From the IMG/VR virus record IMGVR_UViG_3300024268_000010: DNA of 64,000 bases; one strand, given 5' to 3'. Below are positions 26,490-50,849 of this stretch, piece after piece. The notes beneath the pieces are model-generated. The model saw only the letters and a program-made list of their open reading frames with translations, did no database searches and had not been told where the DNA came from. This DNA is from a virus. Lineage: Duplodnaviria > Heunggongvirae > Uroviricota > Caudoviricetes. Position 1 is the stretch's first letter; each line of letters opens with the position of its first letter. The position numbers and the translations under genes were made by a program.

Positions 26490-26599
26490 TAAATAAATCA
26501 CCTTTCTGTAATCATTCTGTATTGTACAATGTTTAAATATATAGACAAAACTAGCATTTTTGTCTATAATTACAAACATAATCATTTTGTACTGTATAT

Positions 26600-26852: not shown

Positions 26853-28781
26853 TTAATCTCCAATCATCATTAAAAATTCATTTTCTGTAATAATAGGTAT
26901 ATTTAACTCAATCGCTTTTTTATATTTACTGCTACCACTTTGTTCGTTTGTGATTAAATAATTTGTATTTTTACTGACTGATCCGGTTGTTTTTGCGCCG
27001 AGTTCAACAATTTTTGTGTTAATACTATCTCTTGTAAAATGGGTAAGTTTTCCTGTCACGCATAGTATTTTTCCACTGAATGGATTCTGTTTCGTCACAG
27101 TCTTCGTCGGCACAACAAACTTCATCTCCGACGCTAAATCAACGATTTCTGCCTCATTGTCAATGAAATACTTAGTAATATTTGCACACGTCTTATCACC
27201 AATATCCTGTAAGTCTGACCAATTGTATCCGTTCTTAAAAGCACTAAGTAATTGCTCAAAATCACCGTTAAATGCTTCCGCAATAGTTTTGGAAGCAGAT
27301 TTACCTACTCCGTCAATAGACAAAGCACATATAAAGTTTTCAAGTTTTACATCCCTGCTCTTTTCAATTGATTCAAGCAATTTATTTACTGACTTGTCTC
27401 CAAATCCATCAAGCTTAATCATATCTGCTTTGTTGACATCCAAATAGTAAATGTCAACAAACTTAGTCAGCCAACCAAGTTCGATAAACTTTTCAAGAGT
27501 CGCCTCGCTTAACCCTTCGATATCCATTGCGGGCTTGGATACAAAGAACTTCAATCTACCCAATAATTTGCCTAAGCAGTTGATGTTTTTGCACATAAGT
27601 ACTTCGGACTCATTCTCTTTCACGACTTCAGTTTTACCACCACAAACTGGGCATTGCTTAGGATAAGTTATAGGAGAATCGCCATCCTGGAGGCAAGAAT
27701 CAATCTGAGGAATGATTTGGTTGGCTTTATACACTTTCACGGTACAATTATTCGTGAGTCCTAACTTCTTAATAATAGAAATGTTATGGAGGGAAGCTTT
27801 ACTAACATCAGTACCGTCAATATTAACTGTTTCAAAAATTGCCGTAGGAGTAAGAGTGTTTGTTTTGCCCATTGTCCATTCAATATCAAGCAGTTTCGTT
27901 TCGTAAAGTTCGTCGTAGAATTTATAAGCTAATCCTCCGCAGAAGTGGTGATCCGTTCTACCCATTAATTCATATTCAACAGGGTTATCTAACTTAAACA
28001 CCAGTCCGTCAATTGGATAACTATAATCTTCTGCAACCTGTTTTAGGCACATTGTATCCTCAACAACATGATATAAACCTCTTAAAAGCGGAACGACAGT
28101 AAAGGAAAGATTTCTGAGCCAAGCCAATACTGCACGCAGACTATTTGACTTAGGGTTTCCAATCACATCCCACGCCACAAATGTCAATTTTCTCTTGGCG
28201 CATTCGTTGCTATCAAGAAGTCTAATGCTTCCAGAAGCGAAGTTTCTAGCATTCTTATATTCGCTTTCAAATTCCTTAAAGTCGTCAAGTTTACAAATGA
28301 TTTCGCCGTCAACTACAAGCCTATCAGTATACGGAATTTTCTTTGGAATCGAAGGAATAACCATTGCATTGTGAGTAATATCCTCACCAATCTCACCATC
28401 CCCTCGTGTTTCTGCTCTTACCAGCCTACCATTTTCATACAAAAGCGAACATGTTAAACCGTCCATCTTTAACATAGCAATCCAATCTTTGTCTCCAACA
28501 AAAGATTTGATCTCTTCAATATCCTTTGTCTTGTCCAGAGATAGCATAGAATGGTTGTGCTTAACCTTCGGCAGTTCATTAACGACAGTATAGTTTACTT
28601 TTTGAGTTGGTGAGTCAGGCATAGTATATCCCCATGTGTGTTCCAATTCGACAAGTTCAAAATACTTATCGTCCCATTCTTTATCAGAGATTTCTGGAAT
28701 ACCTTTGTCATACAATTCTGTATGTCTATTGAGTTCTTTAGTAAGAAATTTAATGCGTGCATATGCGTCAAGTTTTTCCAT
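26853..28781 (-). CDS. ligA: NAD+-dependent DNA ligase
   Basis: KxDG adenylation motif (LKMDGLTCSL), zinc finger CPVCG, C-terminal BRCT-like region; start taken at MEKLD with the RBS aaggag. Confidence 0.9.
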   Translation of the reverse strand: MEKLDAYARIKFLTKELNRHTELYDKGIPEISDKEWDDKYFELVELEHTWGYTMPDSPTQKVNYTVVNELPKVKHNHSMLSLDKTKDIEEIKSFVGDKDWIAMLKMDGLTCSLLYENGRLVRAETRGDGEIGEDITHNAMVIPSIPKKIPYTDRLVVDGEIICKLDDFKEFESEYKNARNFASGSIRLLDSNECAKRKLTFVAWDVIGNPKSNSLRAVLAWLRNLSFTVVPLLRGLYHVVEDTMCLKQVAEDYSYPIDGLVFKLDNPVEYELMGRTDHHFCGGLAYKFYDELYETKLLDIEWTMGKTNTLTPTAIFETVNIDGTDVSKASLHNISIIKKLGLTNNCTVKVYKANQIIPQIDSCLQDGDSPITYPKQCPVCGGKTEVVKENESEVLMCKNINCLGKLLGRLKFFVSKPAMDIEGLSEATLEKFIELGWLTKFVDIYYLDVNKADMIKLDGFGDKSVNKLLESIEKSRDVKLENFICALSIDGVGKSASKTIAEAFNGDFEQLLSAFKNGYNWSDLQDIGDKTCANITKYFIDNEAEIVDLASEMKFVVPTKTVTKQNPFSGKILCVTGKLTHFTRDSINTKIVELGAKTTGSVSKNTNYLITNEQSGSSKYKKAIELNIPIITENEFLMMIGD

Positions 28782-28924
28782 TTTCAAGCTCCTTAATAAA
28801 ATCTGCAATTAAAACAACAACTTCTGTAAAATCTGCAGCCAAATTATCAAAACCAAGTCGTTTAAAATAATCTGCTTTTTCTTGATATTTTTCTTTTTGT
28901 TCTTTCAAATACTCTGGCGTCATA

Positions 28925-29443
28925 TTATTCTCCAATCACATTAATCTGACACATTTTCATGACTTCGAGTGCGTGTCTATGACTCTCTGGAGTTACACAA
29001 GCACAGCAACTTGCGTCTACAGTGATGTTTGCGTCTGGGAACTGTGCTTTAAGCATAATCGCGTTTGATACTACGCAGATGCTTGTACAAGTACCCACGA
29101 GCTCAATGTTTTCAAAATCGCCCTCATACTCCCAATAACGATAACCGAAGGTGGTTTTGTTAATATGGCGACATTCTGGGTGCGACAATTCATCCACAAC
29201 AAGCCAGCCATATGTTCCGTGTACACAATGTTCAATCGGAAGGTGTTTGCCCTCGTTAGTTTCTAAATAATTAAATTTATGCGTGTCTCTTGTAAAAATT
29301 ACTTCATCACCACGAGCTAAATATTCATCAATCTTCTTTTTGACATTTGGAATGATTGCTTGTGCGTATGGATTTGCAAGTGTACCTGTCAAGAAATCAT
29401 TCTGCATATCTATTACAATTAAAGTTTTCATATTATTCTCCAA
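28925..29443 (-). CDS. isochorismatase-family hydrolase, PncA-like nicotinamidase
   Basis: IVIDMQNDF (Asp), a conserved Lys, and catalytic Cys in GTCTSICV; 172 aa. Confidence 0.6.
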   Translation of the reverse strand: MENNMKTLIVIDMQNDFLTGTLANPYAQAIIPNVKKKIDEYLARGDEVIFTRDTHKFNYLETNEGKHLPIEHCVHGTYGWLVVDELSHPECRHINKTTFGYRYWEYEGDFENIELVGTCTSICVVSNAIMLKAQFPDANITVDASCCACVTPESHRHALEVMKMCQINVIGE

Positions 29444-29675
29444 TCTTGATATTTTTTATCTGCACCTCAGTAAGTTCAGTAACCTTAAACGGGTCTCTCT
29501 GGTCTTCTCGTTCAACTTCTTTTATAACAAAAGTTATGTCTTGATGACTAACGTTCTTTATATTATTTGCGCTTAAATAATTGCAAATGATTTCCATAAC
29601 TTGCACTGGCGTTAGACTTATAGTTGCATTTAATTTCATATCAAATACCTTCCTTGATTCTATAATCAACTGCAT
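29433..29675 (-). CDS. hypothetical protein
   Basis: 80 aa ORF between the PncA-like and pncB genes. Confidence 0.4.
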   Translation of the reverse strand: MQLIIESRKVFDMKLNATISLTPVQVMEIICNYLSANNIKNVSHQDITFVIKEVEREDQRDPFKVTELTEVQIKNIKIGE

Positions 29676-30834
29676 TTTTCAAATATGTGATGTAGTCATT
29701 GTTTTGGCACATGGTTTTGCCGGGCACATCACTCAATTTTGCAACTGGATGTCCATTAACATATTGCAATTTAATAACAATATTGATAGGGTTGACATTA
29801 GTATCGTTACTTAAATAAGTACCAATCCCAAAACTTACATTGATTCTGTCTTTAAGTACATCATAAATACTCTGTGCCTTGTCAAAATCCAGACCGTCGC
29901 TAAACAGTAATGTTTTCGTTTTAGGATCGATTCCAAGTTTTTCGTAATGAGCAATCAATTTTTCTCCCCACTCAATCGGATCACCACTATCATGTCTTAC
30001 ACCAGTATAACAAGTTGCTTGAAGTCTATTAAAGTCCATAAGAAACAAGTCTGTGCCAAGTGTGTCAGTAAGTGCAGTGCCGAGATCTCCTTGATATTCA
30101 TCGAACCATTCATCCATTGCCATCTTATTTGTATATGCAAGAGTTACACCAGGAATACCTTGAAACATTTGTACATATTCGTGAGCATATGTACCAATAG
30201 GCTTGCACCCATACTTCATTGCAAGATATACATTAGAAGTACCAACACACTTGCCCGTTAAAAGAAGACGTTCGACCGCAAAATCTTGGAACTCTCTACT
30301 TAATCTTCTACGGCAACCAAATTCCGCAAAATTAAATGTATATTTTCCTGTGTTAATATTATGCATTTTATGAAAGAGTTTTATAACCGCAGAATCCAGA
30401 AGTTCATCATAATCATATTTCATTCTAAAATATACTTCATTCACAATTTCAAGAAGATAGATTTCAAACTGCATTACGGAAAACAGTGGTCCATCAACTT
30501 GAAGATTGAGCGTGCCGTCTGGGTTGCCGTGACAAGTGACATATCTACGAAGAGGGCGCCAGAGACGAAGGAATTCCACATAGTCAGATTTAATAAACCG
30601 AAGTGAATTTAGATAATCAAGTTCTTCGTCGGTAAATGTAAGTGTACAAAAGTGGTCAATCTGTGCATTGATTTCATCAACCATTTCAGGAGTAAATTCA
30701 ACATCTTTATTACGACATTTGAAAAGATAAACACCATTTAAATTAGTATGTTTATGAAACATTACCTGTCCCATTGTAAACTTATATAAATCTGTATCCG
30801 TCAAATGCGTAATAATAGGGCTAAGTTTCATCAT
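29641..30834 (-). CDS. pncB: nicotinate phosphoribosyltransferase
   Basis: Strong similarity to E. coli PncB along its length: DTDLYKFTM, GVRHDSGDPIEWGEKLIAHYEKLGIDPKTKTLLFSD, NIVIKLQYVNGHPVAKLSDVPGKTMC. Confidence 0.85.
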   Translation of the reverse strand: MMKLSPIITHLTDTDLYKFTMGQVMFHKHTNLNGVYLFKCRNKDVEFTPEMVDEINAQIDHFCTLTFTDEELDYLNSLRFIKSDYVEFLRLWRPLRRYVTCHGNPDGTLNLQVDGPLFSVMQFEIYLLEIVNEVYFRMKYDYDELLDSAVIKLFHKMHNINTGKYTFNFAEFGCRRRLSREFQDFAVERLLLTGKCVGTSNVYLAMKYGCKPIGTYAHEYVQMFQGIPGVTLAYTNKMAMDEWFDEYQGDLGTALTDTLGTDLFLMDFNRLQATCYTGVRHDSGDPIEWGEKLIAHYEKLGIDPKTKTLLFSDGLDFDKAQSIYDVLKDRINVSFGIGTYLSNDTNVNPINIVIKLQYVNGHPVAKLSDVPGKTMCQNNDYITYLKNAVDYRIKEGI

Positions 30835-31398: not shown

Positions 31399-31469
31399 AC
31401 TCCTCTTTCTTTTACCTTACTACATTATCATTATGCCCTCACGAAAATCGCAAGGGCATAAATTTCATT

Positions 31470-32396
31470 TTAACCGATTCCTTTAAGAATGGTTGTGTCA
31501 CTACCAACAACCTCCGGCAATTTGCCATCCCAGTTATCGGCATATGTTTTTTCAATAAGTTTGTCTGTAATCGACTCAGAAATCTTCTTGTTAGCTTCTG
31601 CCTCTGCTTCAGCAGCAATTCTCTTTGCCTCTGCTTCAGCTTCTGCTTTGATAATCGCCTGTTCTGCATTAATGCGAGCGACTTCTTTTTCAGCCTCTGC
31701 TTGTTTCAAAGCAACTTCTTTGTCTTTCTGAGCCTGAATCAAAGCAGTTTTCGCCTCAATCTCTGCAAGTTCAAGTTCCTGTTGTGCCGTAACTTTTTTC
31801 TGAATCGCCTGTGCGGTTTCCTCGTCCACAGAAATGTTAGTAAAGTTAACAGTATCAATAATAATTCCATAAGCAGCAAACTTTTCTCGGAGATATACAT
31901 CAAGTTCTGCATTAATTTGTGTTCGTTTATCGCCAAAAATATCTGTTACGGGATAATTCGCAGATACTTCCTGTGTCCATGCAACCACCTTGGGTTTGAT
32001 AAAAGTATTTTTAATTTCCTCTCCTGAACGACCCTTAAATAACGTAAATGTTTCTGTTAGTCTTTCAGCATCAAATTTATACGAAAACTCAAGATCCACT
32101 TTCACTGTTTTGCCATCAGATGTAGGAATGCTAAAACTTTCATCTGTCTTTGAGTCGCCTTTGTTATCTGCTGTTAAATAAGATTGTTCAAGCCCAATGG
32201 AATATGTAGTTACTTTTTTTGTAGGGGAAACCACATGCCAACCCTGTGACAATGTTTTTTCTTCAATGCCACCTCGCATATTGTAGACAACACCTGCATA
32301 ACCAGCGTCTATTTTTGCAGTGCACATAAACACCATTACAATTGCCAAAACAAGAATTACCGCCAAGACAATACCACCAACCAAACCTTTTTTCAT
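31470..32396 (-). CDS. SPFH/band-7 (prohibitin/flotillin-like) membrane protein
   Basis: N-terminal TM helix followed by an SPFH core and an Ala/Glu-rich coiled coil; start taken at MKKGLVGG with the RBS ggag. Confidence 0.75.
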   Translation of the reverse strand: MKKGLVGGIVLAVILVLAIVMVFMCTAKIDAGYAGVVYNMRGGIEEKTLSQGWHVVSPTKKVTTYSIGLEQSYLTADNKGDSKTDESFSIPTSDGKTVKVDLEFSYKFDAERLTETFTLFKGRSGEEIKNTFIKPKVVAWTQEVSANYPVTDIFGDKRTQINAELDVYLREKFAAYGIIIDTVNFTNISVDEETAQAIQKKVTAQQELELAEIEAKTALIQAQKDKEVALKQAEAEKEVARINAEQAIIKAEAEAEAKRIAAEAEAEANKKISESITDKLIEKTYADNWDGKLPEVVGSDTTILKGIG

Positions 32397-32397
32397 A

Positions 32398-32553
32398 TTA
32401 TTGCTCCTTTTCTTTATTCTCTTCAAACATTGCTTCTTTTGCATCAATAAATAATCTGCTGAAAAATTTACCAATTGGTCTGTACAAAAATGCACACAAA
32501 AACCACAGCAGACATACACCAAGAAAAACTAATAATAAAAATACGGGATTCAT
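32398..32553 (-). CDS. small membrane protein (51 aa)
   Basis: MNPVFLLLVFLGVCLLWFLCAFLYRP...; RBS aggaga. Confidence 0.3.
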   Translation of the reverse strand: MNPVFLLLVFLGVCLLWFLCAFLYRPIGKFFSRLFIDAKEAMFEENKEKEQ

Positions 32554-32658
32554 TTACATCTCTCCTATCTTATCGTTTGCGTCTTCTTGACGCCACAACC
32601 ACACCAAGAACAAAAACAATCACAAGAGTAATAGCAAACGATGTTAAACTCAAATATA

Positions 32659-33411
32659 TCATTTGTTACCTCTTTGTCTCTTTAGTTCGTCAACAACACG
32701 TTGTGCTTCTCTGTTTTGCTCCGACTGTCTCATTCTGTTCTCTGCGGCCTGAGCACTCGTATCATATGCGATCTTACTACCCTTTGCTCTTTCTCTTGTT
32801 TTCTTTGCACCTTCACGAACACGTTCCAGCATTCGATCGCTTTCACTGTTAAGTGCAAGATTGTCAAGAGATTGGTGAAGTTCAATCATTTGGTGATCTG
32901 CCTCAAGCTGAAATACAACTTGTTCTTTTTCTTCTCGAAGTTTTCTCAACTCCACTGCCGCCTGATCTCTCACTTCTTTTTGATGCTTCTGCGCTTCTTT
33001 CATTTCGGCAATTGTGTCCTGAAGAACTTCAATTTTGCTTTCCAGTGTCACCAATCTATTTGCATAATACAGTGCGTCTTCATCATTACTACCATCAACA
33101 CACAAGTTTAATTGCTGTTTGGTCTTCATAACATCTTTTTTTACTTGATACAAATCTTTTTCAGTGGTATCCACTTTACCAGAAATATCAGCATAAGTAG
33201 CAGACGCTCTGTTGTAAAATTCTTCTTTCTCACGAATGGCCGCATTATAATAATCTTTCGCACCCTCTGGCGTTGAGGCATCTTGCCTCATAATTTCATC
33301 TGTTCTTCCTCTAAATTTAACAAGCAACTGTTGCAAAAACGGCTTATTAAAAATCAAAAGAAAAACAAGTACAATGAGTAAAACTCCAATTAAAATTCCA
33401 ACAACAGTCAT
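32659..33411 (-). CDS. membrane-anchored coiled-coil protein (PspA/LemA/TelA-like stress protein)
   Basis: N-terminal TM helix (VVGILIGVLLIVLVFLLIF) followed by a long charged coiled coil; sits next to the TerD genes. Confidence 0.45.
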   Translation of the reverse strand: MTVVGILIGVLLIVLVFLLIFNKPFLQQLLVKFRGRTDEIMRQDASTPEGAKDYYNAAIREKEEFYNRASATYADISGKVDTTEKDLYQVKKDVMKTKQQLNLCVDGSNDEDALYYANRLVTLESKIEVLQDTIAEMKEAQKHQKEVRDQAAVELRKLREEKEQVVFQLEADHQMIELHQSLDNLALNSESDRMLERVREGAKKTRERAKGSKIAYDTSAQAAENRMRQSEQNREAQRVVDELKRQRGNK

Positions 33412-33422
33412 ACATTTACTCC

Positions 33423-34004
33423 TTATTCTGCGTCAATTCCATATGTGGCACACAGTTTTGCTAAGCCACCATTATATCCACTGCCAATTGCTTTGAATTG
33501 CCACTGACTATTGTGCTTATAAATTTCTCCAACGACCAATGCTGTTTGTGTGGAGAAATCCTCACTCAAATCATAGCGCAAAATTTCTTCGTTGTTATTC
33601 TCGTCAACAAGTCGAATATAGGCATTAGAAATCATTCCGAAGTTTTGAAGTCTATGCTCTGCGTCATAAATTGTAATAACTGCAACCAATCGTTCATAAC
33701 CATCAGGAATTTTTGACAATTCGATTTTGATCACCTCGTCGTCTCCGTCACCTTCGCCAGTACGATTATCTCCGGTGTGAATCACACTTTTGCTCGGATG
33801 TGTTAAATTACCATAAAAGACAAAATCATTATCATTGCCTACCTTGCCATTGTGCTTAAGCATGAAAATTGACGCGTCCAAATCAAAATTTGCTTCGCCG
33901 TCATAGTGATTAATATCCCAACCCAAACCAATAAGAACCTTATCAAGAGAGGGGTTGCCTTTTGTAAGGCTCACCCTCTGACCTTTGTTTAAACTTACAG
34001 ACAT
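33423..34004 (-). CDS. TerD-domain protein (paralogue 1)
   Basis: TerD hallmarks: GLGWD, the acidic Ca-binding GDNRTGEGDGDDE loop, FGMI. Confidence 0.85.
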   Translation of the reverse strand: MSVSLNKGQRVSLTKGNPSLDKVLIGLGWDINHYDGEANFDLDASIFMLKHNGKVGNDNDFVFYGNLTHPSKSVIHTGDNRTGEGDGDDEVIKIELSKIPDGYERLVAVITIYDAEHRLQNFGMISNAYIRLVDENNNEEILRYDLSEDFSTQTALVVGEIYKHNSQWQFKAIGSGYNGGLAKLCATYGIDAE

Positions 34005-34014
34005 TTTATTCTCC

Positions 34015-34587
34015 TTATCTATATTTTCTTGTCATCGAGGAAATACTAGTATCAGTCGTACCTTGACCGACAGCGTTGAATTTCCATTCATTATTATGAT
34101 TGTATACTTCTGCAAAAATCATTGCTGTTTTACCATCATAATTATCTGATAGATTGTACTTACAAATTTCTTTGTGTGTAGAAGCATCAACCAAACGAAT
34201 GAATGCATTCTTAATCATGCCAAAATCCTGTTTTCTTGATTCACAAGCATAAATATTAACGACAAACACAATCTTTTTTACTTTGGACGGCATATCGGAA
34301 AGGCTGACAATAATCTGTTCGTCATCCCCATCTCCATCTCCCGTGAGATTGTCTCCAGTATGACGAACCTTACCATCCAGAGAATAAGTGTGTCCGTAAT
34401 ACACACAATCTATCAACTTTTCATTTTCATCAAGAATAATTGCCGAAGCGTCACAGTCAATGTTAGGCTGATAACCGAAGATTCCTCTTTTTACAGCATC
34501 CCAACCAAGACCAACGACGACTTTGCTCAGCCCATTCACTTCTTTAGACAAACTGATTTTCTGACCCTTTGATAAACTAATAGACAT
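34015..34587 (-). CDS. TerD-domain protein (paralogue 2)
   Basis: GLGWDAV, GDNLTGDGDGDDE, FGMIKNAFIRL. Confidence 0.85.
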   Translation of the reverse strand: MSISLSKGQKISLSKEVNGLSKVVVGLGWDAVKRGIFGYQPNIDCDASAIILDENEKLIDCVYYGHTYSLDGKVRHTGDNLTGDGDGDDEQIIVSLSDMPSKVKKIVFVVNIYACESRKQDFGMIKNAFIRLVDASTHKEICKYNLSDNYDGKTAMIFAEVYNHNNEWKFNAVGQGTTDTSISSMTRKYR

Positions 34588-34603
34588 ATTTACTTCCTCC
34601 CTA

Positions 34604-35182
34604 TTAAATATTCAAACCAAAATTACGACCAATGGTGCTCAAGCCACCTGCATAACCAGAACCAACAGCAGCAAACTTCCATTCACCATTATGTCTGTAC
34701 AGTTCGCCAGCAACAATGCCAGTTTCCAGCGAAAAATCTTCATTCAACTCATACTTAAACAGTTCTTCGTTTGTGGTAATGTTATATGCTCGAATATAAG
34801 AATTGTCCACCATGCCAAAATTCTGAAGTCTTGTTTCTGCGTCATAAATCGTTGCTGCAAAACTAATCTTTGAGATATTGGTTGGCACTTTAGACAAATC
34901 AACCTTAATGGTTTCATCATCACCGTCACCAACACCACTTCTGTTGTCACCAGAATAATCGACTGCACCACTAGGATGTGTGGGCTGATTATAGAAAATG
35001 AAATCGTGTTCGCCGGTCACTTTGCCTGACGCATCGGTAAGAAATACCGATACATCCAAATCAAATTCATTGTTGCCATCATACTTATTGGTGTCCCAAC
35101 CAAGCCCAAATGCAACATTAACCAAGCCGCTGTTTCCTTTCGTCAGATCAATCTTCTGACCTTTTACCAAGCTAATAGACAT
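34604..35182 (-). CDS. TerD-domain protein (paralogue 3)
   Basis: GLGWD, GDNRSGVGDGDDE, FGMVDNSYIR. Confidence 0.85.
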   Translation of the reverse strand: MSISLVKGQKIDLTKGNSGLVNVAFGLGWDTNKYDGNNEFDLDVSVFLTDASGKVTGEHDFIFYNQPTHPSGAVDYSGDNRSGVGDGDDETIKVDLSKVPTNISKISFAATIYDAETRLQNFGMVDNSYIRAYNITTNEELFKYELNEDFSLETGIVAGELYRHNGEWKFAAVGSGYAGGLSTIGRNFGLNI

Positions 35183-35188
35183 ATTCTT

Positions 35189-37819
35189 TTATCTCCTTTT
35201 ATTAATTAAAATTTTTCTCATAATATCAATCGGGATTACGATGAACGACAATCCGATAACTACTGCCCACTGCATGGGGGTAAGGGCACAAACTTTCATA
35301 AAATCACCAGCAAGAGTACATACAAAGACTACGCCAAGCATGATACCAATTGCGATCTTGCTAAACAGTTTGTTTTTGCTAAGACCTGTAAACAGGTTAA
35401 TATGTTCGGTTCTAATATTAAAACCATTAAGCACTGCCATGAAACAGAGCAAAGCAAAGCGAGCGGTAAGTTTACTTGTTTCATCAGTAAACAATGTATT
35501 AGGAATTGCGAAAATTAAGATGGAGTATGCGATAAGAAAAGCAATGGCACTGCATGCAATTTTACATTTCGCACCACGGATGAAGAGTCCAGAACCTTTT
35601 TTGATAGGTTGTTCGTGCATATATTCTTCTTTGGGAGGCTCGCCACCAAATGACAGTGAGTTAAGAGAGTCCATAATAATGTTGACAAGAAGGATTTGTA
35701 CCGAAGCCAACACTGCCAAACCACCTGTCAGCATTGGGAAAATCATACTGAGTACAAGAAGAGAAATATTGATAGGCAACTGAAATTCAAGGAACATCAT
35801 GATATTGTGCATAAATGTTCTACCAAGCTCCACAGCTTTTACAACGGATGCGAAGTTATCATCGGTAAGAATGATATCGGATGCTTCTTTCGCAACATCA
35901 CTACCACTCTGCATACCAAATCCAACATCTGCTCTCTTCAAGGCGGGGGAGTCATTTACACCGTCACCAGTCATTGCGACCGACATACCAAGTTCTTGAG
36001 CCAAAGTAACCAATCTTAACTTTGTATTAGGGGAACATCTGGAAATTACTCTGAGACGAGGAATGATTTCTTTGACTTCGTCGTCTGACATTTTTTCAAA
36101 CTCATCGTTTGTCAATGCAACATCTCCATCTTTGTAAATTCCACATTCTTTTGCAACCGCAATTGCTGTTTCAATGCAGTCACCGGTGATTTCAATTACC
36201 TGAATACCCGCTTCGTGTGCAACACGAACTGCCTCAGGAACTTCTTTTCTTACAGGGTCAACCACACCAATGATACCCAAGAAAGTCATATCATTAGGAA
36301 GTTCATTTTCAACGAGCTTTCCGTTTGCAATACCAAGTGCAATGCATCTGATTGAGTTTGTCGTAAACTCTTTGATTTTTGCATTAAGTTCGTCTTTGTT
36401 TGCAAAACTTACAATGGAACCGTCACTTGTCATTGCAGAACTGCAAGCAGTGATAATCTTTTCTGGAGCACCTTTGTAATATGTAACTTCTTCCTCGTTG
36501 GTGCAAGCAGAATATTTGTTGACACTATTGAATACCTGTTTATCAAGTATGCCATATTCTGCAACAATATCATGTGCCTCTTTGGATGTTACCAATGATA
36601 GCACTGCTCTATCGATTGAGTTGCCACCAGTGATACAGTCATTTGAATCAAAGACGGCGCTATTGTTAAGAATAATATTGATTTTTAGAAAATCAAGCAA
36701 CATGGTGTTTTGTTCAATTTCGTTTCCGTTATAATCAACGATTGTTTTCGGAGACATAATACCAGTTGTCAGTGTGCCAGTTTTATCAGTGCAAATCAAA
36801 TTAACATATGCAAGTTCGGGAATTTTGCCGGGGTTTTTAGCAAGAATATTAAACTTTTCCATTGTTTTAACGTTCTGCTTTGTAACAAGCTTAACAATCA
36901 ACGGCAGTCCTTCTGGTACTGCGGCAACGACAATCGTAAGCGCGACAGAGAAATTTGAAGCGAACTTCTGAATAAGTTCCAGAACATTTCCTGTAAAATA
37001 CTGAGAAAATCCAACTTCCAAAATGCCCGTGATTGTCAATACAAAAAATGTAATGACTGCTGCAATTGTTCCCCATTTCGAAATGAATTCACTCAGCTTA
37101 TCGAGCGCAATGGTGAGTGCAGTCTTTGGAGCTTCCAATGTCTGCATTTTAACAAGTGTGTCACCGTTTACAGTATTAACGCCAACATCCGTGACTATCA
37201 TTTTACCTTCACCGGACATTACACTTGTTCCTGCAAACAAACAGTTCTGATTCGTGTATGCGTCAGTTGAAGTTGTTTTTGTGTGTATATAGTCTTTGAC
37301 AGGAGTTTTACGGCATTCTTTCGTTTCACCGTTAATGGCTGCGTTGTTTACACTAACCTTTCCTTCGACGATGTAACCATCTGCAAAAATTTCCTGACCC
37401 ATACCGATACAAACAACATCTCCAACTACAAGGTCGTCTTTGTTGATCGTTTGTACTTTTCCATCTCGAATAACATCACAATATCTTACCGATGTCTTGA
37501 GTCGCAATTCTGTGGCTGATTTTTGTACACCAAGACCTGTTCTGATTGCAATACCTGTGACAATTGCCAGAACCAGCATAATCATCAGAGGTTCAGAACA
37601 TTCCATTACACCGAGCGCCGCTAGTGCTAACTGCAGTACCGTGATTGCGATTAGAATTAGTGTAATCTTTTCGCTCAGTGCTTCTTTGGCAAAATCGTAC
37701 CACTTCTTTTGTTTTGGTTCAGGCAATTTGTTGCTACCATGCTTCCATCTGCTTTCAACTACCTGTTTTTGTGTCAATCCGTTCATCTTTTTTGTTTCTC
37801 CTTTTTTTGTTTCATTCAA
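35189..37819 (-). CDS. P-type cation-transporting ATPase (type II, Ca2+-ATPase-like)
   Basis: DKTGTLT phosphorylation site, TGDGVNDSPALKRADVGFGM hinge, about 10 TM segments, 876 aa. Confidence 0.85.
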   Translation of the reverse strand: MNETKKGETKKMNGLTQKQVVESRWKHGSNKLPEPKQKKWYDFAKEALSEKITLILIAITVLQLALAALGVMECSEPLMIMLVLAIVTGIAIRTGLGVQKSATELRLKTSVRYCDVIRDGKVQTINKDDLVVGDVVCIGMGQEIFADGYIVEGKVSVNNAAINGETKECRKTPVKDYIHTKTTSTDAYTNQNCLFAGTSVMSGEGKMIVTDVGVNTVNGDTLVKMQTLEAPKTALTIALDKLSEFISKWGTIAAVITFFVLTITGILEVGFSQYFTGNVLELIQKFASNFSVALTIVVAAVPEGLPLIVKLVTKQNVKTMEKFNILAKNPGKIPELAYVNLICTDKTGTLTTGIMSPKTIVDYNGNEIEQNTMLLDFLKINIILNNSAVFDSNDCITGGNSIDRAVLSLVTSKEAHDIVAEYGILDKQVFNSVNKYSACTNEEEVTYYKGAPEKIITACSSAMTSDGSIVSFANKDELNAKIKEFTTNSIRCIALGIANGKLVENELPNDMTFLGIIGVVDPVRKEVPEAVRVAHEAGIQVIEITGDCIETAIAVAKECGIYKDGDVALTNDEFEKMSDDEVKEIIPRLRVISRCSPNTKLRLVTLAQELGMSVAMTGDGVNDSPALKRADVGFGMQSGSDVAKEASDIILTDDNFASVVKAVELGRTFMHNIMMFLEFQLPINISLLVLSMIFPMLTGGLAVLASVQILLVNIIMDSLNSLSFGGEPPKEEYMHEQPIKKGSGLFIRGAKCKIACSAIAFLIAYSILIFAIPNTLFTDETSKLTARFALLCFMAVLNGFNIRTEHINLFTGLSKNKLFSKIAIGIMLGVVFVCTLAGDFMKVCALTPMQWAVVIGLSFIVIPIDIMRKILINKRR

Positions 37820-37839
37820 TCATTTTGGATTGTAATTCT

Positions 37840-37867
37840 ATTATACTGATATTTTCAAATTTGTCAA
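37840..37867 (-). promoter_or_regulatory. canonical TTGACA-16-TATAAT promoter followed by the TACAATCCAAAATGATTGA leader
   Basis: On the - strand: TTGACAaatttgaaaatatcagTATAATagaatTACAATCCAAAATGATTGAATG; an AATTGTAAAT box lies about 20 nt upstream of the -35. Confidence 0.55.
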
Positions 37868-37901
37868 TATATTACTGAAGTTATTTACAATTTGTTAATA
37901 A

Positions 37902-38930
37902 TTATATCTCACCTTTAACAATTCTCTCATTAACAGACGCCACGAACTCGTTAATTTTGTTGTAATCCGGGTTATCTGGTAACTCTGTTGTCTGCTTTGC
38001 CTTGTCGAGTCTTGCTTCTAGCTCATCTACAATCTCAAAAAATTCTGGGATTGGTTGTCTATTTTCGTCAAGATATTTACCATTACGAATATCCATAAGG
38101 AAATCATGATCTTTTTCTCTGTATGTAATAATTTCTCCATTGTTAAGAATATCAAGGCACATCAGATAAAGACGAACCAAATGCATCATGTGCTTCGACA
38201 GCTTGCCGTGTTCGATGGCATTCTGATTGCGTTTACCAATCTTGCCGTATTCTTTGACAATATTGTTCATTACAGACCACATACACTTATAATCTCTAAG
38301 AGGATAATGCTTGAGATTGACATCCATAAAGATTTCACTCTCGTACTCTTCCGACTCAGACTTGTCGATATAGAGTTTAATTGCGTCGTCATCGTATGTG
38401 AAGTATCTGGTCTTGAAATCATAGGATGCGTTTTCAATGCTATTCAGAATATGACGTTCCTGCTCCGTTTGAGATACCAATCTTGCAGCCTTATTGTCGA
38501 GACGACGTAATTGAGCATTAGCATAACCTCCAAATGAATGAACACAACGCTTTGAAAGGAATAAATGACGATGATCAAGTAATTCCTTACCTATCGGAGA
38601 GAGGTAGATATAATGTTCTGGCTTGCAACCTAATAGTTCAATTGTATTTGGATTCACATTTGTCAGAAGGGAAATCAATTTATTAAAACTATAAATTGTA
38701 GTATCAGTATCCTCGTTGACGAACTGCTCAAAATTCTTATTTGTTAAGATTTCATCTTTTGCATTTAATGCACAGCCACGGATATCAACATCAGACCCTT
38801 CCACATTAGTTCCATATGCATGACTTCCACCAAGAGTAAGAAGAATGATATTGGGACCGAGATGCTCGTTGGTTCTAAGGAAATTATATTCCGGCGTTTG
38901 TATTAGAGTTTTAATTTCATTAATTGTCAT
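37902..38930 (-). CDS. Pol-beta-superfamily nucleotidyltransferase (paralogue A)
   Basis: GGSHAYGTNVEGSDVDIRG, a GS...DxD nucleotidyltransferase motif. Confidence 0.5.
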   Translation of the reverse strand: MTINEIKTLIQTPEYNFLRTNEHLGPNIILLTLGGSHAYGTNVEGSDVDIRGCALNAKDEILTNKNFEQFVNEDTDTTIYSFNKLISLLTNVNPNTIELLGCKPEHYIYLSPIGKELLDHRHLFLSKRCVHSFGGYANAQLRRLDNKAARLVSQTEQERHILNSIENASYDFKTRYFTYDDDAIKLYIDKSESEEYESEIFMDVNLKHYPLRDYKCMWSVMNNIVKEYGKIGKRNQNAIEHGKLSKHMMHLVRLYLMCLDILNNGEIITYREKDHDFLMDIRNGKYLDENRQPIPEFFEIVDELEARLDKAKQTTELPDNPDYNKINEFVASVNERIVKGEI

Positions 38931-38957
38931 TTTATCACCTCAATCATTTTGTATGGT

Positions 38958-39836
38958 TTAATGAGCGTTTAAATCTGCTTCGTGAAGCAAATCTATCTGT
39001 TTCTTCAAGCACGGAGGTAGATTGTTGTAATACTTGGTGTTCATAAAAGGATCCATATGTGTGCTAATAAGCCAAGCAATATACGGAGTAACATATTGCA
39101 TACCATACGACACCCATGCTCCTACACATTGATGCTGATAATAATGTGCAGTTTCACAAGGATTGCCTTTATTATCTACGAATGCCTTGACATATGGTTT
39201 ACCAACATCATGATAGAATGCCGCAAACCCAATATCACTAGAATACACACCAATCTTATTAACAATATATTTGTTTGCCTCCAAACAATGGTCAAATACA
39301 TTTAATGTATGGTGAGGATTATCATGGGAAATCTGCATACTCGAACAAGTGGAATTTGCATAGTCATATGCATTAAAATCTTTTGGTTTAACAATCTGAA
39401 TTTCGTCAATACCTTCATCATAATAAGGGGCATGGAATCGTTTAAGCATTCGGTCAATAACTTCCTTGCCAACAGTACGTTCTCTCTCAGAGTCCCTTTC
39501 AATACAAACCTCAATAGGTGCCCAAGCAATATGACACTCAATCTTAGCAAACTTTGGACACGCTCCAATAATACCCATTCTATCCTTTCGGGTGACATTG
39601 GTTGCGTCATACAACACATCATGACCGTCATTAAGCGCCACGATAGCTCTATTTTGCATCAAAGAGAACACATCAACTGGATTTCCCTGTACGCTTTCAT
39701 CACCGTAAAGTTCTTTACGAATTTCGTCCGAACTTAAATGGACAGCATTTGAATTGTGTTGAATGTAATTTTTTGCATATGTGGTCTTTCCAGAACCCGG
39801 AATTCCACACAAAATTATCAGTTTTGGTCTATTCAT
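38958..39836 (-). CDS. P-loop polynucleotide-kinase-like domain fused to an HD phosphohydrolase domain
   Basis: Walker A (ILCGIPGSGKTTYAKNY) at the N-terminus; HD motifs at the C-terminus (HDNPHHTLNVFDH, FYHDVGKPY). Confidence 0.55.
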   Translation of the reverse strand: MNRPKLIILCGIPGSGKTTYAKNYIQHNSNAVHLSSDEIRKELYGDESVQGNPVDVFSLMQNRAIVALNDGHDVLYDATNVTRKDRMGIIGACPKFAKIECHIAWAPIEVCIERDSERERTVGKEVIDRMLKRFHAPYYDEGIDEIQIVKPKDFNAYDYANSTCSSMQISHDNPHHTLNVFDHCLEANKYIVNKIGVYSSDIGFAAFYHDVGKPYVKAFVDNKGNPCETAHYYQHQCVGAWVSYGMQYVTPYIAWLISTHMDPFMNTKYYNNLPPCLKKQIDLLHEADLNAH

Positions 39837-40672
39837 TTGTTAATCTCCAATTCTTTTGTAATTCCTATTTTGATAATGTTATATGCCACTTCTTCAAAAA
39901 GTGCATATACGGTTTCGTCAACAGTGTTGTTGCAGGTTTTAAGATAGTCATTGTACATTTTTTGAATATTGTCCATAGTTTCCTTACCCAGGCATCTTGC
40001 GTCATCAAGATTATATTTGCCCTTCTTAACATCGATAAGCCAGTCTGGTTCAGCAGAAATTAGGCAATCGCCAAAAGAACAACCATTTACCCATCTATGC
40101 ATAAATTCTTTAATTCTAAACAGATGGTGCAATTGTTTTACGTCATAGCCCCATTTGTCAATTACATGCATTCTCGAAGGGTACTTATGCTCCATCGCGT
40201 GATACTTTTCACCCGCAATACCCTTCATTGATTTAATCAAAGACGGCAAATTCATCGAAACAATGGAATCCCTTGCCTCAACAAGTTTATTCCATTCCTC
40301 TTCATAGATGGGATTGATAATATAATATTTTGTATATAGGATTTCAAGAAAATTAAGATTTGACTTCTTGAATGTTTCAAGTAAAATTCTAATATCCTTA
40401 AAGTCGATATGTTCATCATTCTCTCTGACGTATGTGGTACTAGTCATCTTGCTTTCTGCAAGTTCTTTAAGAGATGGTGCTAATACGCACTTTGTATCGA
40501 CGTCTGACTCATTATAATCGAGGCCATAGTTGCCTGCCCCTTGGCAGTACACGCCGACAATTCTCTCTTTGGGATATTGTGTGATAGCGTCATTGTAATG
40601 ATCCCACATTCGCTTCATTATCCAGTCATAACTATGAAAATTCATGTTAATCTCCTTAATTTCCAATTTCAA
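39833..40672 (-). CDS. Pol-beta-superfamily nucleotidyltransferase (paralogue B)
   Basis: GAGNYGLDYNESDVDTK motif, paralogous to 37902-38930. Confidence 0.5.
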   Translation of the reverse strand: MKLEIKEINMNFHSYDWIMKRMWDHYNDAITQYPKERIVGVYCQGAGNYGLDYNESDVDTKCVLAPSLKELAESKMTSTTYVRENDEHIDFKDIRILLETFKKSNLNFLEILYTKYYIINPIYEEEWNKLVEARDSIVSMNLPSLIKSMKGIAGEKYHAMEHKYPSRMHVIDKWGYDVKQLHHLFRIKEFMHRWVNGCSFGDCLISAEPDWLIDVKKGKYNLDDARCLGKETMDNIQKMYNDYLKTCNNTVDETVYALFEEVAYNIIKIGITKELEINK

Positions 40673-41873
40673 TCAGATACTTAATAGTCATTTGGTCATT
40701 TCTATAAAATACAATCTCGTCATTTCTCAACATACCCTTGTCTGCTTTTGCATGCAAACAATTACATTTGGGTGTTTTCTTCTGAAGCACATCATAATTC
40801 AAGTGATAACAACTACTGTCGTGCTGATAAATAACATAAGGTGTTCCATATGCAACTTCAAACAACGCCATGTAGGCCGTGTTATTACCACCATGTGTCC
40901 AATACGCTCCTGACAAAGATGTATATCCAATGGATTTTTGACACTTAGGGGCGAAATAGATGCCATCGCTAAACATCGATCCTGTGTATACGGCATTACT
41001 AGGACGAATCATAAGCCCGGTTTTGATAATTGAAAACCAGTTCTCGCTACGGCTACCGTGGAATAACAGTCTAGTGTCCTTGATATCGTTTTCATTAACA
41101 AACTTATCAAAGCGCTCTTGGGTCTTGAGGTTAGTAACTCTCCAAGCCTTTCTAAACTTATCAACAGACTCGTTCATTAGTGTCTTAATCAGAGCTACAT
41201 CATCTTTCGTCGCCTCTTCCATCACAAGGCTAAGTTCCTCCAAGATAGTCTGTTGTTTCTTTTCATTCGTTTCAACAGGTTCAATATCCGGCTTGACATA
41301 AATCTGTCCACGCATTACATCGAGCAGATCCTGCTCCTTAGTAATAATCTTCGAAAAGTCATCCGTATTACTAGCCAAATAACACCGTACATCACCCATT
41401 CTACGAGGAATAACTGTAAACAACTTAAGTAGATTGGCATTAAACTCTTCCACAGTCGCACTATTATTAGCAAGTTCGTCGATAATTTTCTGTGCGGCGT
41501 CAACCATATCCTTGGTTACAGCAGACGCCTTAACAGTATAGTTCTTGCGAACCGTCTCACGAGCAAGACTTTGCAACTTTTCAACGATTAGTCTTACGGC
41601 TTCGTTTTCAATTTCTCTATAAGGACTTTCGGGATTGGTAGAAGAAATTTCCTCTACCAAGTCTTTCCGAAGATCTGTTACATCCACGTATCCTTTTTTT
41701 AACTTTGCTTTGATTTGTGATTCGAATTTAGAGATTGGATAGTATACCGTTGTTTTAGTTGCGTCAATGCGTCCATACTCCACTCTACATCTATCGCCTT
41801 CCGGAAAAATGTTGTAATATTTATTGTTATTTTGTGCCGTTGTCATAACGAGATAAGTGGGCCGTACTTCCAT
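40656..41873 (-). CDS. WGR-domain poly/mono-ADP-ribose polymerase (PARP catalytic domain)
   Basis: N-terminal WGR (RVEYGRIDA); C-terminal PARP core LLFHGSRSENWFSIIKTGLMIRP...YTGSMFSDGIYFAP, matching the human PARP1 block LWHGSRTTNFAGILSQGL...GYMFGKGIYFA. Confidence 0.75.
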   Translation of the reverse strand: MEVRPTYLVMTTAQNNNKYYNIFPEGDRCRVEYGRIDATKTTVYYPISKFESQIKAKLKKGYVDVTDLRKDLVEEISSTNPESPYREIENEAVRLIVEKLQSLARETVRKNYTVKASAVTKDMVDAAQKIIDELANNSATVEEFNANLLKLFTVIPRRMGDVRCYLASNTDDFSKIITKEQDLLDVMRGQIYVKPDIEPVETNEKKQQTILEELSLVMEEATKDDVALIKTLMNESVDKFRKAWRVTNLKTQERFDKFVNENDIKDTRLLFHGSRSENWFSIIKTGLMIRPSNAVYTGSMFSDGIYFAPKCQKSIGYTSLSGAYWTHGGNNTAYMALFEVAYGTPYVIYQHDSSCYHLNYDVLQKKTPKCNCLHAKADKGMLRNDEIVFYRNDQMTIKYLIEIGN

Positions 41874-41885
41874 GATGTCCTCCTA

Positions 41886-42311
41886 TTAAAGTTCACAAAT
41901 CAAAATCTCAACGTCTGTATCTTCGAACACTTCACAAATAATATCGTAAACATCGTCCCACTGAAGGCGATCAAGACCACAACCGATTTTCGGCATTGCC
42001 AACTTAGTTGCGTCAAGGTTTACCATAATTTCTTTCATCACTTCAAGTGCTTCTCTTACGGCTTCATATCTAGGTTTATGATAACACTTCGGCTTCGTGA
42101 CAAGATTGAACACATTATCAATCGGAAGTGCGTCTCCACCCTCGTATGCATAATTATCATAGTTCTTAAAGAGCTTAAATCTCATGTTGTAAACTTCATC
42201 AAACTTCTTCGCAATACCGGCACCGAGAGCAAAGTCGGCACTAATGCAGTGTGCCAGATAATAGCCCTGAGGCACCGTAAACAAGTCTCTTTTTTCAATT
42301 GTAATATTCAT
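41886..42311 (-). CDS. macro-domain protein (ADP-ribose binding/hydrolase)
   Basis: 141 aa; ALGAGIAKKF glycine-rich macro motif, IGCGLDRL. Confidence 0.7.
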   Translation of the reverse strand: MNITIEKRDLFTVPQGYYLAHCISADFALGAGIAKKFDEVYNMRFKLFKNYDNYAYEGGDALPIDNVFNLVTKPKCYHKPRYEAVREALEVMKEIMVNLDATKLAMPKIGCGLDRLQWDDVYDIICEVFEDTDVEILICEL

Positions 42312-42326
42312 AATTCTGTTCTCCTA

Positions 42327-50845: not shown

Positions 50846-50849
50846 TCTT

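Follow-up and report, generated by a model that had tools for sequence, protein, structure and literature searches.

The window, a stretch of 64,000 nucleotides, derives from a phage of ~175 kb from a gut metagenome, whose host is probably a member of the Bacillota; its nearest isolated relative infects Clostridium innocuum. Eight closely packed genes, all on the - strand, form a cassette in the replication and host-takeover arm of the phage genome (Table 1), and the genes listed in a preliminary description of this DNA were all recovered where it had placed them. Read 5' to 3', the order is ATPase, TerD1, TerD2, TerD3, a PspA-like protein, a 30-aa TM peptide, a 51-aa TM peptide and an SPFH protein; the SPFH and the two tiny TM genes thus exist as described, but they are transcribed after the TerD genes, being downstream and not upstream of them. 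Neighbouring genes overlap or are separated by gaps of 1-16 nt. The window also codes for a 646-aa serine recombinase (phrog_95) and a TubZ-like tubulin.

Table 1. Features of the cassette and its borders, in the order of transcription
Feature	Position	Strand	Basis or remark
Sigma-A/sigma-70-type promoter-like site	37840..37867	-	TTGACA-N16-TATAAT, 12/12 positions match
Type II P-type ATPase (865 aa), PMCA-like; putative Ca2+ exporter	35189..37786	-	Pfam domains, TIGR01517
TerD paralogue 1, 192 aa, YceD/E-like	34604..35182	-	Pfam TerD E 6.7e-76
TerD paralogue 2, 190 aa, YceC-like	34015..34587	-	Pfam TerD E 1.2e-70
TerD paralogue 3, 193 aa	33423..34004	-	Pfam TerD E 2.4e-82
Membrane-anchored PspA/Vipp1-like coiled-coil protein, 250 aa	32659..33411	-	Family profile, AF2 model
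30-aa single-TM peptide, basic C-terminal tail	32570..32662	-	Start overlaps PspA-like stop (ATGA)
51-aa single-TM peptide, acidic C-terminal tail, partner of SPFH gene	32398..32553	-	
SPFH/Band-7 protein, prohibitin-like, 308 aa	31470..32396	-	Band_7 E 6.6e-23, phrog_200
14-bp stem-loop	31431..31461	-	Directly after SPFH stop

The cassette is bounded by a perfect host-type promoter on its 5' side and by a strong hairpin on its 3' side. The promoter-like site is located 54 nt 5' of the ATPase ATG, and four perfect copies of this element, all on the - (coding) strand and with similar spacers, are found in the genome. The promoter had been called conserved, which holds for the type repeated inside this genome but not for the site upstream of the ATPase across phage lineages: it is present only in the lineage of the window, and in the others the cassette has no promoter of its own and is apparently read through from upstream phage genes. 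The hairpin has a minimum free energy of -20.2 kcal/mol (z -4.4; 0/200 shuffles equally stable) and no U tract; it is possibly the 3' end of the transcript or a stabiliser. Together with the close gene spacing, the promoter is consistent with transcription as the single operon originally proposed.

All three TerD paralogues cover the full Pfam TerD model, scoring 254, 237 and 275 bits at a cut-off of 25.3 bits; every domain assignment passed, so that no TerD protein fell below the profile threshold, the outcome that the preliminary description had named as speaking against it. The acidic Ca2+-binding motif ascribed to each protein is likewise borne out, as two Ca2+-binding motifs are retained in each paralogue and in nearly all of ~295 orthologues. 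TerD3 can be aligned over its full length with Klebsiella TerD (PDB 2KXT; E 1e-72), including FDLDAS and GDNRTGEGDGDDE; the motifs are FDLDVS and GDNRSGVGDGDDE in TerD1, and IDCDAS and GDNLTGDGDGDDE in TerD2. Pan et al. are said to have reported in 2011 that TerD binds Ca2+ and to have solved its structure (2KXT/2KXV). TerD1 shares 78-81% of its residues with its counterparts from other lineages and 61% with B. thuringiensis TerD2, and the top bacterial match of TerD2 is B. thuringiensis TerD1 (49%). Because orthology is 1:1 across lineages and orthologues (69-87% identity between lineages) are closer than paralogues (40-57%), the triplication appears to be old. The three proteins are predicted to be cytoplasmic.

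The ATPase comprises the Pfam domains E1-E2_ATPase, Cation_ATPase_N, Cation_ATPase_C and Hydrolase. Its translation most likely begins at ATG 37786, since a ribosome-binding site is present, gene calls agree and homologues measure 863-866 aa; the type II assignment stands, and the length is corrected from 876 to 865 aa. The start codon TTG 37819 was rejected: it lacks a ribosome-binding site, and ~14 nt separate it from the position where transcription is predicted to begin. All catalytic and ion-site motifs are retained, and DKTGT, PEGLP, KGAPE, TGDGVND and VNIIMD are kept in all 129 phage homologues, and the A-domain motif is NGET in place of the canonical TGES. The top NCBIfam model is the PMCA-type TIGR01517 with 493.7 bits, below its cut-off of 507.05, and this score and the NGET motif leave ion specificity and kinetics putative. 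The closest solved relatives are ACA8, SPCA1 and LMCA1. The transported ion might mainly be one other than Ca2+, such as the Mn2+ moved by SPCA/PMR1-type pumps, with the ATPase taking the place of TerC beside TerD in metal export or metallation; in keeping with this, the Ca2+/Mn2+ pump SPCA1 ranks second among the solved relatives, TIGR01522 (PMR1 type) scores 384 bits, the PMCA equivalog cut-off is missed, and in Bacillus a TerD triplet is followed by TerC, a family whose members export Mn2+. We regard this as improbable, however: the top profile and top solved matches are of the PMCA type, the retained single-site ligands (Glu of PEGLP in M4, Asn and Asp of VNIIMD in M6) agree with the Ca2+ site of PMCA/ACA8, and the TerD motifs are Ca2+-binding ones.

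The 250-aa coiled-coil protein, formerly labelled PspA/LemA/TelA-like, scores 25.2 bits with PF04012, under the curated cut-off of 33.9, and the four best solved matches of its 80-member family profile are Vipp1/PspA (E 3e-7). An AF2 model (pLDDT 92.9) consists of a TM helix and a long helical hairpin, which fold searches did not separate from generic helical hairpins; the TM helix is N-terminal and takes the place of the amphipathic helix alpha0. Judged from its profile, the protein is a remote, TM-tethered homologue of PspA/Vipp1 (ESCRT-III superfamily). The PspA part of the label is thereby upheld and the TelA part dropped, as an hhalign comparison of the family with TelA was non-significant. 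The family comprises 234 clusters among 1.84 billion representatives; of 185,579 species genomes from bacteria and archaea, only 4 contain a member, each time on a MAG contig with the same cassette; it seems to be phage-resident.

Both tiny TM ORFs are real and conserved in other lineages. The 30-aa peptide, translationally coupled to the PspA-like protein, has equivalents of 28-30 aa at the same position in four lineages, and peptides of 51-53 aa resembling the second one lie directly 5' of SPFH in lineages L029 and L043. The SPFH protein itself, laid out as TM helix, SPFH domain and Ala/Glu-rich coiled coil, clearly passes the Band_7 cut-off (82 versus 23.6 bits), and its closest solved relative is prohibitin-1 (E 4e-8). 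SPFH is found near the cassette in just 6 of 80 viral loci; the 51-aa peptide/SPFH pair is a separate, lineage-specific second module.

The five-gene core from the ATPase to the PspA-like gene keeps its order in 74 of the 75 IMG/VR loci that extend far enough upstream (80 loci in total; of the six others, five are truncated at a contig end). The same block recurs in several lineages with differing flanks, and synteny persists at 47% ATPase and 51% PspA-like identity. These features argue against a host operon that was acquired recently and persists as a neutral passenger, for which one could cite the 56-61% identity between the TerD proteins and Bacillus TerD and the fact that a TerD triplet is normal in Bacillota. 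The block is intact and in order in >100 phage contigs from lineages whose proteins have diverged to ~50% identity, the ATPase shares only ~30% of its residues with the bacterial pumps compared, the PspA-like gene is virtually absent from bacterial and archaeal genomes, and the TerD order is unlike that of bacterial yceCDE; such a passenger is already largely refuted and very hard to credit. In the variant L004, the ATPase, TerD1, TerD2, both peptides and SPFH are missing, whereas TerD3 still adjoins the PspA-like gene; from this deletion variant, the cassette appears to be dispensable in nature. TerD x3 and ATPase are independently linked, in other gene orders, in MT840059 and MT836648, and TerD is annotated in >100 isolated phages.

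A phage TerD triplet with a Ca2+ pump had been considered unusual, which is only half right: the block is common in gut viromes, and its parts are known from phages through work reported in 2025-26 (PMC12880540, Sci Adv 2026). Jug phages carry a Ca2+-translocating P-type ATPase and three terD genes, with one terD adjoining a pspA-like gene that is likened to the present one by description, and four smaller gut phages (159-197 kb) also have such ATPases; ATPases resembling those of Bacillota are mentioned there as well. The phage studied here may be of the same kind as these smaller ones. In Jug phages (360-402 kb, predicted host Bacteroides), however, the terD regions are described as operons apart from that of the ATPase, which is preceded by a partner of 77-91 aa, whereas here ATPase, TerD x3, PspA-like protein and TM peptide (plus peptide/SPFH) form one contiguous block. 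A description of the fused cassette was found neither in PMC12880540 nor in the other literature searched; what is new is the fixed ATPase-TerD x3-PspA-like combination of parts known before. The Ca2+-transporting P-type ATPase of Chlorella virus (Bonza et al. 2010, cited in PMC12880540) is likewise a virus-encoded type II pump without long regulatory tails, but it belongs to a eukaryote-infecting virus, and TerD or PspA partners are not reported for it.

Among bacterial systems, the yceCDEFGH-type operon of Bacillus (TerD x3-TerC-YceG-TelA) shares one YceC-like and two YceD/E-like TerD proteins (49-61% identical), but the phage cassette lacks TerC, YceG and TelA and differs in paralogue order. 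On B. thuringiensis pLUSID2, such an operon adjoins a P-type ATPase gene, which is, however, convergent and only 30% identical to the phage one. The terZABCDE operon of IncHI2 plasmids and E. coli O157 has a TerD domain 58% identical in the plasmid case; the cassette lacks TerZ/A, TerB and TerC, and hence no tellurite-related function can be inferred for it. With TerC, TerB and TelA absent, the cassette, first described as a Ter-like island, does not qualify as a canonical Ter island. A parallel to its part from the PspA-like gene to SPFH is B. subtilis pspA-ydjGHI (samGHI), with the order PspA family, two membrane proteins, SPFH, in which PspA is connected to the membrane through the SPFH protein (PMC8581546; PMC11237479); in the phage, the PspA-like protein is anchored by a TM helix of its own, the small peptides are not YdjG/YdjH, and SPFH is an infrequent neighbour. 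A survey of PSP partners contains no PspA-TerD link ("TerD" occurs 0 times in its text).

On balance, we lean towards the cassette being a conserved phage-resident calcium and membrane homeostasis block, its most likely role being to export and buffer Ca2+ and to stabilise the membrane while the cell is infected or lysogenised. Two other roles have to be weighed. In the first, which we consider unlikely but a serious contender, the genes are lysogenic-conversion cargo, expressed from a (plasmid-)prophage to the benefit of the gut host, for instance in tolerance of Ca2+, bile, membrane-active compounds or pore-forming bacteriocins. The serine recombinase and the TubZ-like tubulin, a pair as in plasmid prophages, make expression in the lysogen instead of lytic growth possible; the cassette's own promoter and terminal hairpin and the natural deletion variant point the same way, and canonical ter operons protect against pore-forming colicins. 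Yet the block is co-directional with the surrounding replication, nucleotide, NAD and RNA-repair arm, away from the genome end and the integrase, other lineages seem to rely on read-through from phage genes, and the PspA-like component is essentially missing from bacterial genomes. Moreover, the related Ca-ATPase and terD/pspA-like operons of Jug phages are highly transcribed in gut samples with transcriptionally active phage (PMC12880540).

In the second, which we rate as doubtful, the cassette serves superinfection exclusion or inter-phage competition by mimicking the ter Phi phenotype and blocking DNA entry or the Ca2+-dependent steps of rivals. The ter operons of IncHI2 plasmids confer phage inhibition (Phi) together with resistance to colicins and tellurite, many phages of Gram-positive hosts depend on Ca2+ to infect them, and every component other than the TerD proteins resides in the membrane. 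However, none of the cassette proteins matches a PADLOC defence model, and the canonical Phi phenotype requires TerZABC components, which are absent here.

Within the homeostasis reading, the genes would be transcribed by host RNA polymerase; the pump would lower cytosolic Ca2+, which the TerD proteins may buffer or sense, and the anchored PspA-like protein may stabilise or repair the cytoplasmic membrane, helped in the window's lineage by an SPFH scaffold, much as PspA and its SPFH partner stabilise the membrane in B. subtilis (PMC8581546). Manipulation of host Ca2+ and membrane-stress signalling, as first suggested, may reasonably be inferred. Through these combined actions, the infected or lysogenised Bacillota cell would keep its ion gradients and membrane integrity while a ~175 kb phage completes its long cycle, and might thereby withstand injection damage, superinfection and membrane-targeting defences or bacteriocins.

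On the minus strand of the window, eight close-packed ORFs at 31431-37867 encode a P-type ATPase, three TerD proteins (TerD1-3), a PspA-like protein combining a transmembrane (TM) helix with a coiled coil, two TM peptides and an SPFH protein (see the table below). Intergenic spacers in the cassette measure 1-16 nt, apart from one pair of genes whose stop and start codons overlap as ATGA; such packing behind a host-type promoter appears operon-like. The preliminary description of this region as a Ter-like Ca2+ and membrane stress island (31470-37819) is confirmed as an observation, the two tiny TM ORFs included, with minor corrections, and is borne out in part alone as an interpretation. The promoter, which it called conserved, is a perfect site upstream of the ATPase in the window's own lineage alone, and conservation across lineages is rejected; it is repeated within this genome, with four perfect TTGACA-N16-TATAAT sites on the coding strand (26600-26627, 37840-37867, 48525-48552 and 54787-54814, minus) that have similar, A/T-rich spacers. 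A search allowing one mismatch returned five matches, these four and one on the plus strand, versus ~1.35 expected. Probably, the four sites represent a class of strong host-RNA-polymerase promoters spaced along the leftward gene array. Known RNA elements, riboswitches among them, were ruled out for the cassette by an Rfam search of the window, in which tRNAs were the sole matches.

Positions of the gene block, its signals and the RNA-repair/tRNA regions in the window
Feature	Position	Strand	Remarks
Promoter-like site, TTGACA-N16-TATAAT	37867-37840	-	sigma-70/sigma-A consensus 12/12
P-type ATPase, 865 aa	37786-35189	-	first gene after promoter
TerD1	35182-34604	-	Pfam TerD
TerD2	34587-34015	-	Pfam TerD
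TerD3	34004-33423	-	Pfam TerD; 2KXT alignment
PspA-like TM + coiled-coil protein, 250 aa	33411-32659	-	remote PspA/Vipp1 profile similarity
30-aa TM peptide	32662-32570	-	overlaps PspA-like stop codon
51-aa TM peptide	32553-32398	-	ORF
SPFH protein	32396-31470	-	Band_7
14-bp hairpin, no U tract	31461-31431	-	-20.2 kcal/mol, z -4.4
RNA-repair/tRNA regions	37902-40672, 45933-47438, 49606-51551, 50947-51006, 52001-54154	-	

The sequence shows the identity of the parts, their intact catalytic and Ca2+ motifs, long-term conservation, strict synteny and operon-like packing, and the most likely way for the parts to act together is as follows: the P-type pump would export Ca2+, the TerD proteins would buffer or sense it, and the anchored PspA-like protein with its TM peptide and, here, the SPFH protein would keep the membrane stable or mend it. 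An infected or lysogenised cell would thereby retain its ion gradients and an intact envelope.

The ATPase contains all P-type domains, including Cation_ATPase_N and Cation_ATPase_C, in a 10-TM layout. The domains and motifs attributed to it earlier stand, but not the length of 876 aa; a start at ATG 37786, giving 865 aa, is likely because gene calls and homologues of 863-866 aa agree. Its top-scoring NCBIfam model is the PMCA-type TIGR01517, at 493.7 bits and hence below the equivalog cut-off of 507.05, and its nearest solved relatives are plant ACA8, human SPCA1 and Listeria LMCA1. DKTGT, KGAPE and TGDGVND are in register and invariant in 129 phage homologues; VPEGLPL and LLVNIIMDSL are in register with ACA8 (8QMP) and SPCA1. 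A transported ion other than Ca2+, a reading that overlaps partly with the proposed Ca2+ and membrane function, is quite improbable; the predicted Ca2+-site ligands, namely the Glu of PEGLP in M4 and the Asn and Asp of VNIIMD in M6 (tested as (V/I)N(L/I)(I/V)MD), are kept and invariant in the same 129 homologues. The usual A-domain dephosphorylation motif of P-type ATPases is TGES; in its place, 129/129 phage homologues have NGE(T/S), with the catalytic Glu retained (window ~37290-37310, minus strand), which is a signature of this phage ATPase family. A calmodulin-binding autoinhibitory extension, typical of eukaryotic PMCA and not of bacterial pumps, is absent from the 865-aa protein, whose alignment begins at ACA8 residue 144. 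The best 120 homologues listed are all at least 74% identical, and the contigs examined among them carry the same phage cassette.

TerD1, TerD2 and TerD3 score 254.4, 237.3 and 275.4 bits against PF02342 (cut-off 25.3) and cover model positions 1-187 of 187; all three proposed paralogues thus pass the curated Pfam threshold. The alignment of TerD3 to Klebsiella TerD (2KXT, E 1e-72) spans both proteins entirely and takes in the two Ca2+ motifs. The acidic Ca2+-binding loop ascribed to each paralogue was found in all three as GDN(R/L)TGxGDGDDE, along with DxDxS, as in 2KXT; these motifs, which are kept in most orthologues, make TerD1-3 predicted Ca2+ binders. Each of the three is 1:1 orthologous across lineages with 69-87% identity, versus 40-57% between paralogues, and the triplication is therefore older than the divergence of the lineages. 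TerD is annotated in 133 phage records. In one TerD-bearing phage, Bacillus phage YungSlug, the proteins encoded close to the two TerD genes are not PspA-like.

The relationship of the coiled-coil protein to PspA is more remote. It scores 25.2 bits against PF04012 (PspA_IM30), under the gathering threshold of 33.9, and a sub-threshold, colinear match recurs in 11 of 12 close and 4 of 10 distant family members (best distant score, 33.2 bits). With an 80-member family profile, the top four PDB matches are Vipp1/PspA chains (E 3e-7 to 6e-7), aligned colinearly over ~160 residues (query 48-205 to target 29-187) with generic coiled coils ranking lower, and hhalign against E. coli PspA yields E 6e-4, coiled-coil composition bias being a caveat on these profile matches. 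A profile of the 12 close homologues gave no match in the PDB and none to E. coli PspA. Residues 2-21 form a hydrophobic TM helix where the N-terminal amphipathic helix alpha0, absent from this protein, would stand; PspA/Snf7 homologues with a TM helix are known (PMC11237479). The protein is accordingly called a putative membrane-anchored remote PspA/Vipp1 homologue. The earlier label "PspA/LemA/TelA-like" is thus retained for the remote PspA/Vipp1 similarity seen with the 80-member profile, and TelA identity is rejected (hhalign against B. thuringiensis TelA, E 0.39). A full scan of 1.84 billion cluster representatives returned only 234 clusters, which marks the family as small and distinct from mainstream PspA; scans of viral contigs with three divergent representatives found no loci. 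The sole distant homologue in GenBank phages, at 28% identity, lies on MT835556.1 (3082-3912) between an ABC-permease-like protein and a 528-aa protein with an OmpA-like end, both assigned from ORF translations. This context, which has no TerD neighbour, matches the described neighbourhood of TM-PspA/Snf7 with ABC and OmpA proteins (PMC11237479).

The SPFH/band-7 protein is as previously claimed: it reaches 82.1 bits against Band_7 (cut-off 23.6), has an N-terminal TM helix and a C-terminal coiled coil, and is nearest to prohibitin-1 among solved structures. SPFH genes occur near the cassette in 6 of 80 viral loci, in varying positions and accompanied by their own 51-53-aa TM peptide, and four lineages each have a 28-30-aa TM peptide whose ORF overlaps the stop codon of the PspA-like gene. 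The window combines two modules, the core cassette and an SPFH/peptide module.

The order ATPase-TerD1-TerD2-TerD3-PspA-like is found in 74 of the 80 IMG/VR loci from which synteny was read (103 loci have a PspA-like relative), and five of the remaining six are truncated by the end of a contig, the sixth holding just a 1.3-kb fragment in unrelated flanks (IMGVR_UViG_3300045988_145941, see below). Synteny is kept in lineages whose ATPase and PspA-like protein are at 47% and 51% identity, respectively; identical or similar PspA-like proteins are encoded on many contigs of 100-550 kb. Among 185,579 species genomes, the PspA-like protein occurs on 4 contigs only, all in MAGs and all with the same block. 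This conservation and the near-absence from species genomes argue that the core of the cassette resides in phages and was not freshly copied from a host operon; its carriage as a neutral passenger is unlikely. The region had no megablast match among GenBank phages. A role in superinfection exclusion, overlapping partly with the Ca2+ and membrane model, is quite improbable; the PADLOC defence models matched none of the cassette proteins.

Two related sequences depart from this pattern. A phage contig with 83-93% nucleotide identity (L004, ENA TONG22-1 scaffold_6144) has clean deletions, either genuine variation or an error of assembly: relative to window 34057-38593, two-thirds of RlaP, the promoter, the ATPase, TerD1 and most of TerD2 are gone, and relative to 31474-32657, both TM peptides and the SPFH gene. 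Since L004 has lost most of the cassette, the latter seems dispensable; the retained genes are TerD3 and the PspA-like gene, and this pair may be the functional kernel. In IMGVR_UViG_3300045988_145941 (8515-9818), 1.3 kb comprising the second half of TerD3 and the PspA-like gene stand in unrelated flanks; the segment, with 98% identity to sibling phages, results either from recombination or from chimeric assembly.

Among bacterial arrangements, B. thuringiensis pLUSID2 has TerD x3-TerC-YceG-TelA with a convergent P-type ATPase. Its TerD proteins share 49-61% identity with those of the phage, whereas the paralogue order differs and the ATPases are just 30% identical. The canonical ter operon (terZABCDE/yceCDEFGH) includes TerC, which in the Bacillus reference directly follows the three TerD genes; the phage cassette, in contrast, has no TerC match, and Pfam likewise gave no match there for TelA/YceH or TerB. 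The order PspA, membrane proteins, SPFH has a parallel in B. subtilis pspA-ydjGHI (PMC8581546).

Two unannotated human-gut phage contigs in GenBank, MT840059.1 (L107) and MT836648.1 (L005), carry a TerD triplet with a divergent P-type ATPase (28-37% identity), the ATPase preceding the triplet in L107 and following it in L005; a PspA-like gene was detected on neither. These arrangements suggest repeated functional coupling of TerD and pump. The 2025-26 study of the jumbo gut (Jug) phages describes its Ca2+-translocating P-type ATPases as the first from phages; beyond the Jug phages, it reports such ATPases, Bacteroidaceae-like or Bacillota-like in sequence, from a further 81 huge phages and from four gut phages with genomes of 159-197 kb (PMC12880540). 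Jug phages have three terD genes per genome, one beside a pspA-like gene, and these genes show high in-situ transcription; the ATPase and terD regions are described as separate operons and SPFH is unmentioned (PMC12880540), whereas the window has one contiguous block. A survey of PSP partners lists Band-7 associations and never mentions TerD or calcium (PMC11237479). The combination of three TerD proteins and a Ca2+ pump, earlier judged unusual for a phage, thus consists of known components, and the fixed cassette is a new variation on them.

A 174,765-bp metagenome contig contains the sequence of the window unchanged. The genome carries tail proteins, a serine recombinase, NrdD, a PolIII-alpha-type polymerase, RecJ and a TubZ-like tubulin, besides genes for NAD salvage, ADP-ribosylation and RNA repair and seven tRNAs in the window; its GC content is ~36%, and the nearest isolated phage by polymerase is Clostridium phage Amboise (47%). 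The phage is large, and its host most likely belongs to the gut Bacillota. The block may serve as lysogenic-conversion cargo, a possible if rather unlikely reading that in part coincides with the Ca2+ and membrane model. The tubulin gene (14170-15189, plus strand; Tubulin and TubZ_C_3) lies just after the tail genes and beside the 646-aa serine recombinase (15252-17192, minus); the pair is reminiscent of plasmid-prophage maintenance, for which Clostridium phage c-st offers a parallel, and is relevant to the question of a temperate lifestyle.

NAD-related genes flank the cassette at 26853-30834 and 40656-43499 (minus): a PARP-like ADP-ribosyltransferase, a macro domain protein, nicotinate phosphoribosyltransferase, a nicotinamidase-like isochorismatase, NAD-dependent DNA ligase and an adenylosuccinate-synthetase-like protein. 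Related lineages have NAMPT and NAD synthase in place of the window's NAD genes, and the set looks like an NAD+ salvage or counter-defence module. The RNA-repair set comprises the RlaP nucleotidyltransferase, a polynucleotide-kinase/HD protein and an RNA ligase, with a block of seven tRNAs. ARAGORN missed two tRNA-like Rfam matches, 50947-51006 and 54037-54154; the latter, near a DUF2828/DUF7788 "RNA-binding" protein (52001-53608), is by its length of 118 nt either a tRNA with an insertion or a tRNA-like RNA. Homing-endonuclease-like genes, HNH (25069-25686) and NUMOD3 (59471-60325), stand among DNA methylase and replication genes (minus). At 23074-26585, the C5-methylase signal is divided over two ORFs (25761-26585 and 23074-24636), which are separated by the HNH ORF and additional sequence; the methylase gene may be interrupted.

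A more specific mechanism, considered unlikely, is a machine, encoded by the virus and set off by Ca2+, that repairs membranes much as the ALG-2/ESCRT-III system heals wounds in eukaryotes: Ca2+ entering through a damaged membrane would be sensed by TerD, which would recruit or activate the anchored PspA-like polymer (putative ESCRT-III superfamily) at the lesion, and the adjacent P-type pump would then reset cytosolic Ca2+. A direct TerD-PspA partnership, unlisted in the published PSP-partner survey (PMC11237479), is hinted at by the recurrence of the minimal pair of TerD and PspA-like protein in L004 and in Jug phages (PMC12880540). If true, this would give a concrete biochemical role to TerD, a domain of long-unclear function. 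To our knowledge, TerD is among the most widespread of those bacterial stress domains that still lack a mechanism. In hundreds of gut-phage genomes it is locked in place, with a Ca2+ pump on one side and a membrane-anchored, putative ESCRT-III-superfamily protein on the other; this position leads to a testable model in which TerD is a Ca2+ buffer or sensor coupled to membrane stabilisation, and the five-to-eight-gene block is compact enough to be moved into B. subtilis or E. coli. The cassette would add to what was recently reported on Ca2+ pumps of phages and their likely functional partners, and it suggests active control by large phages of gut Bacillota over the ion balance of the host cell and the integrity of its envelope.
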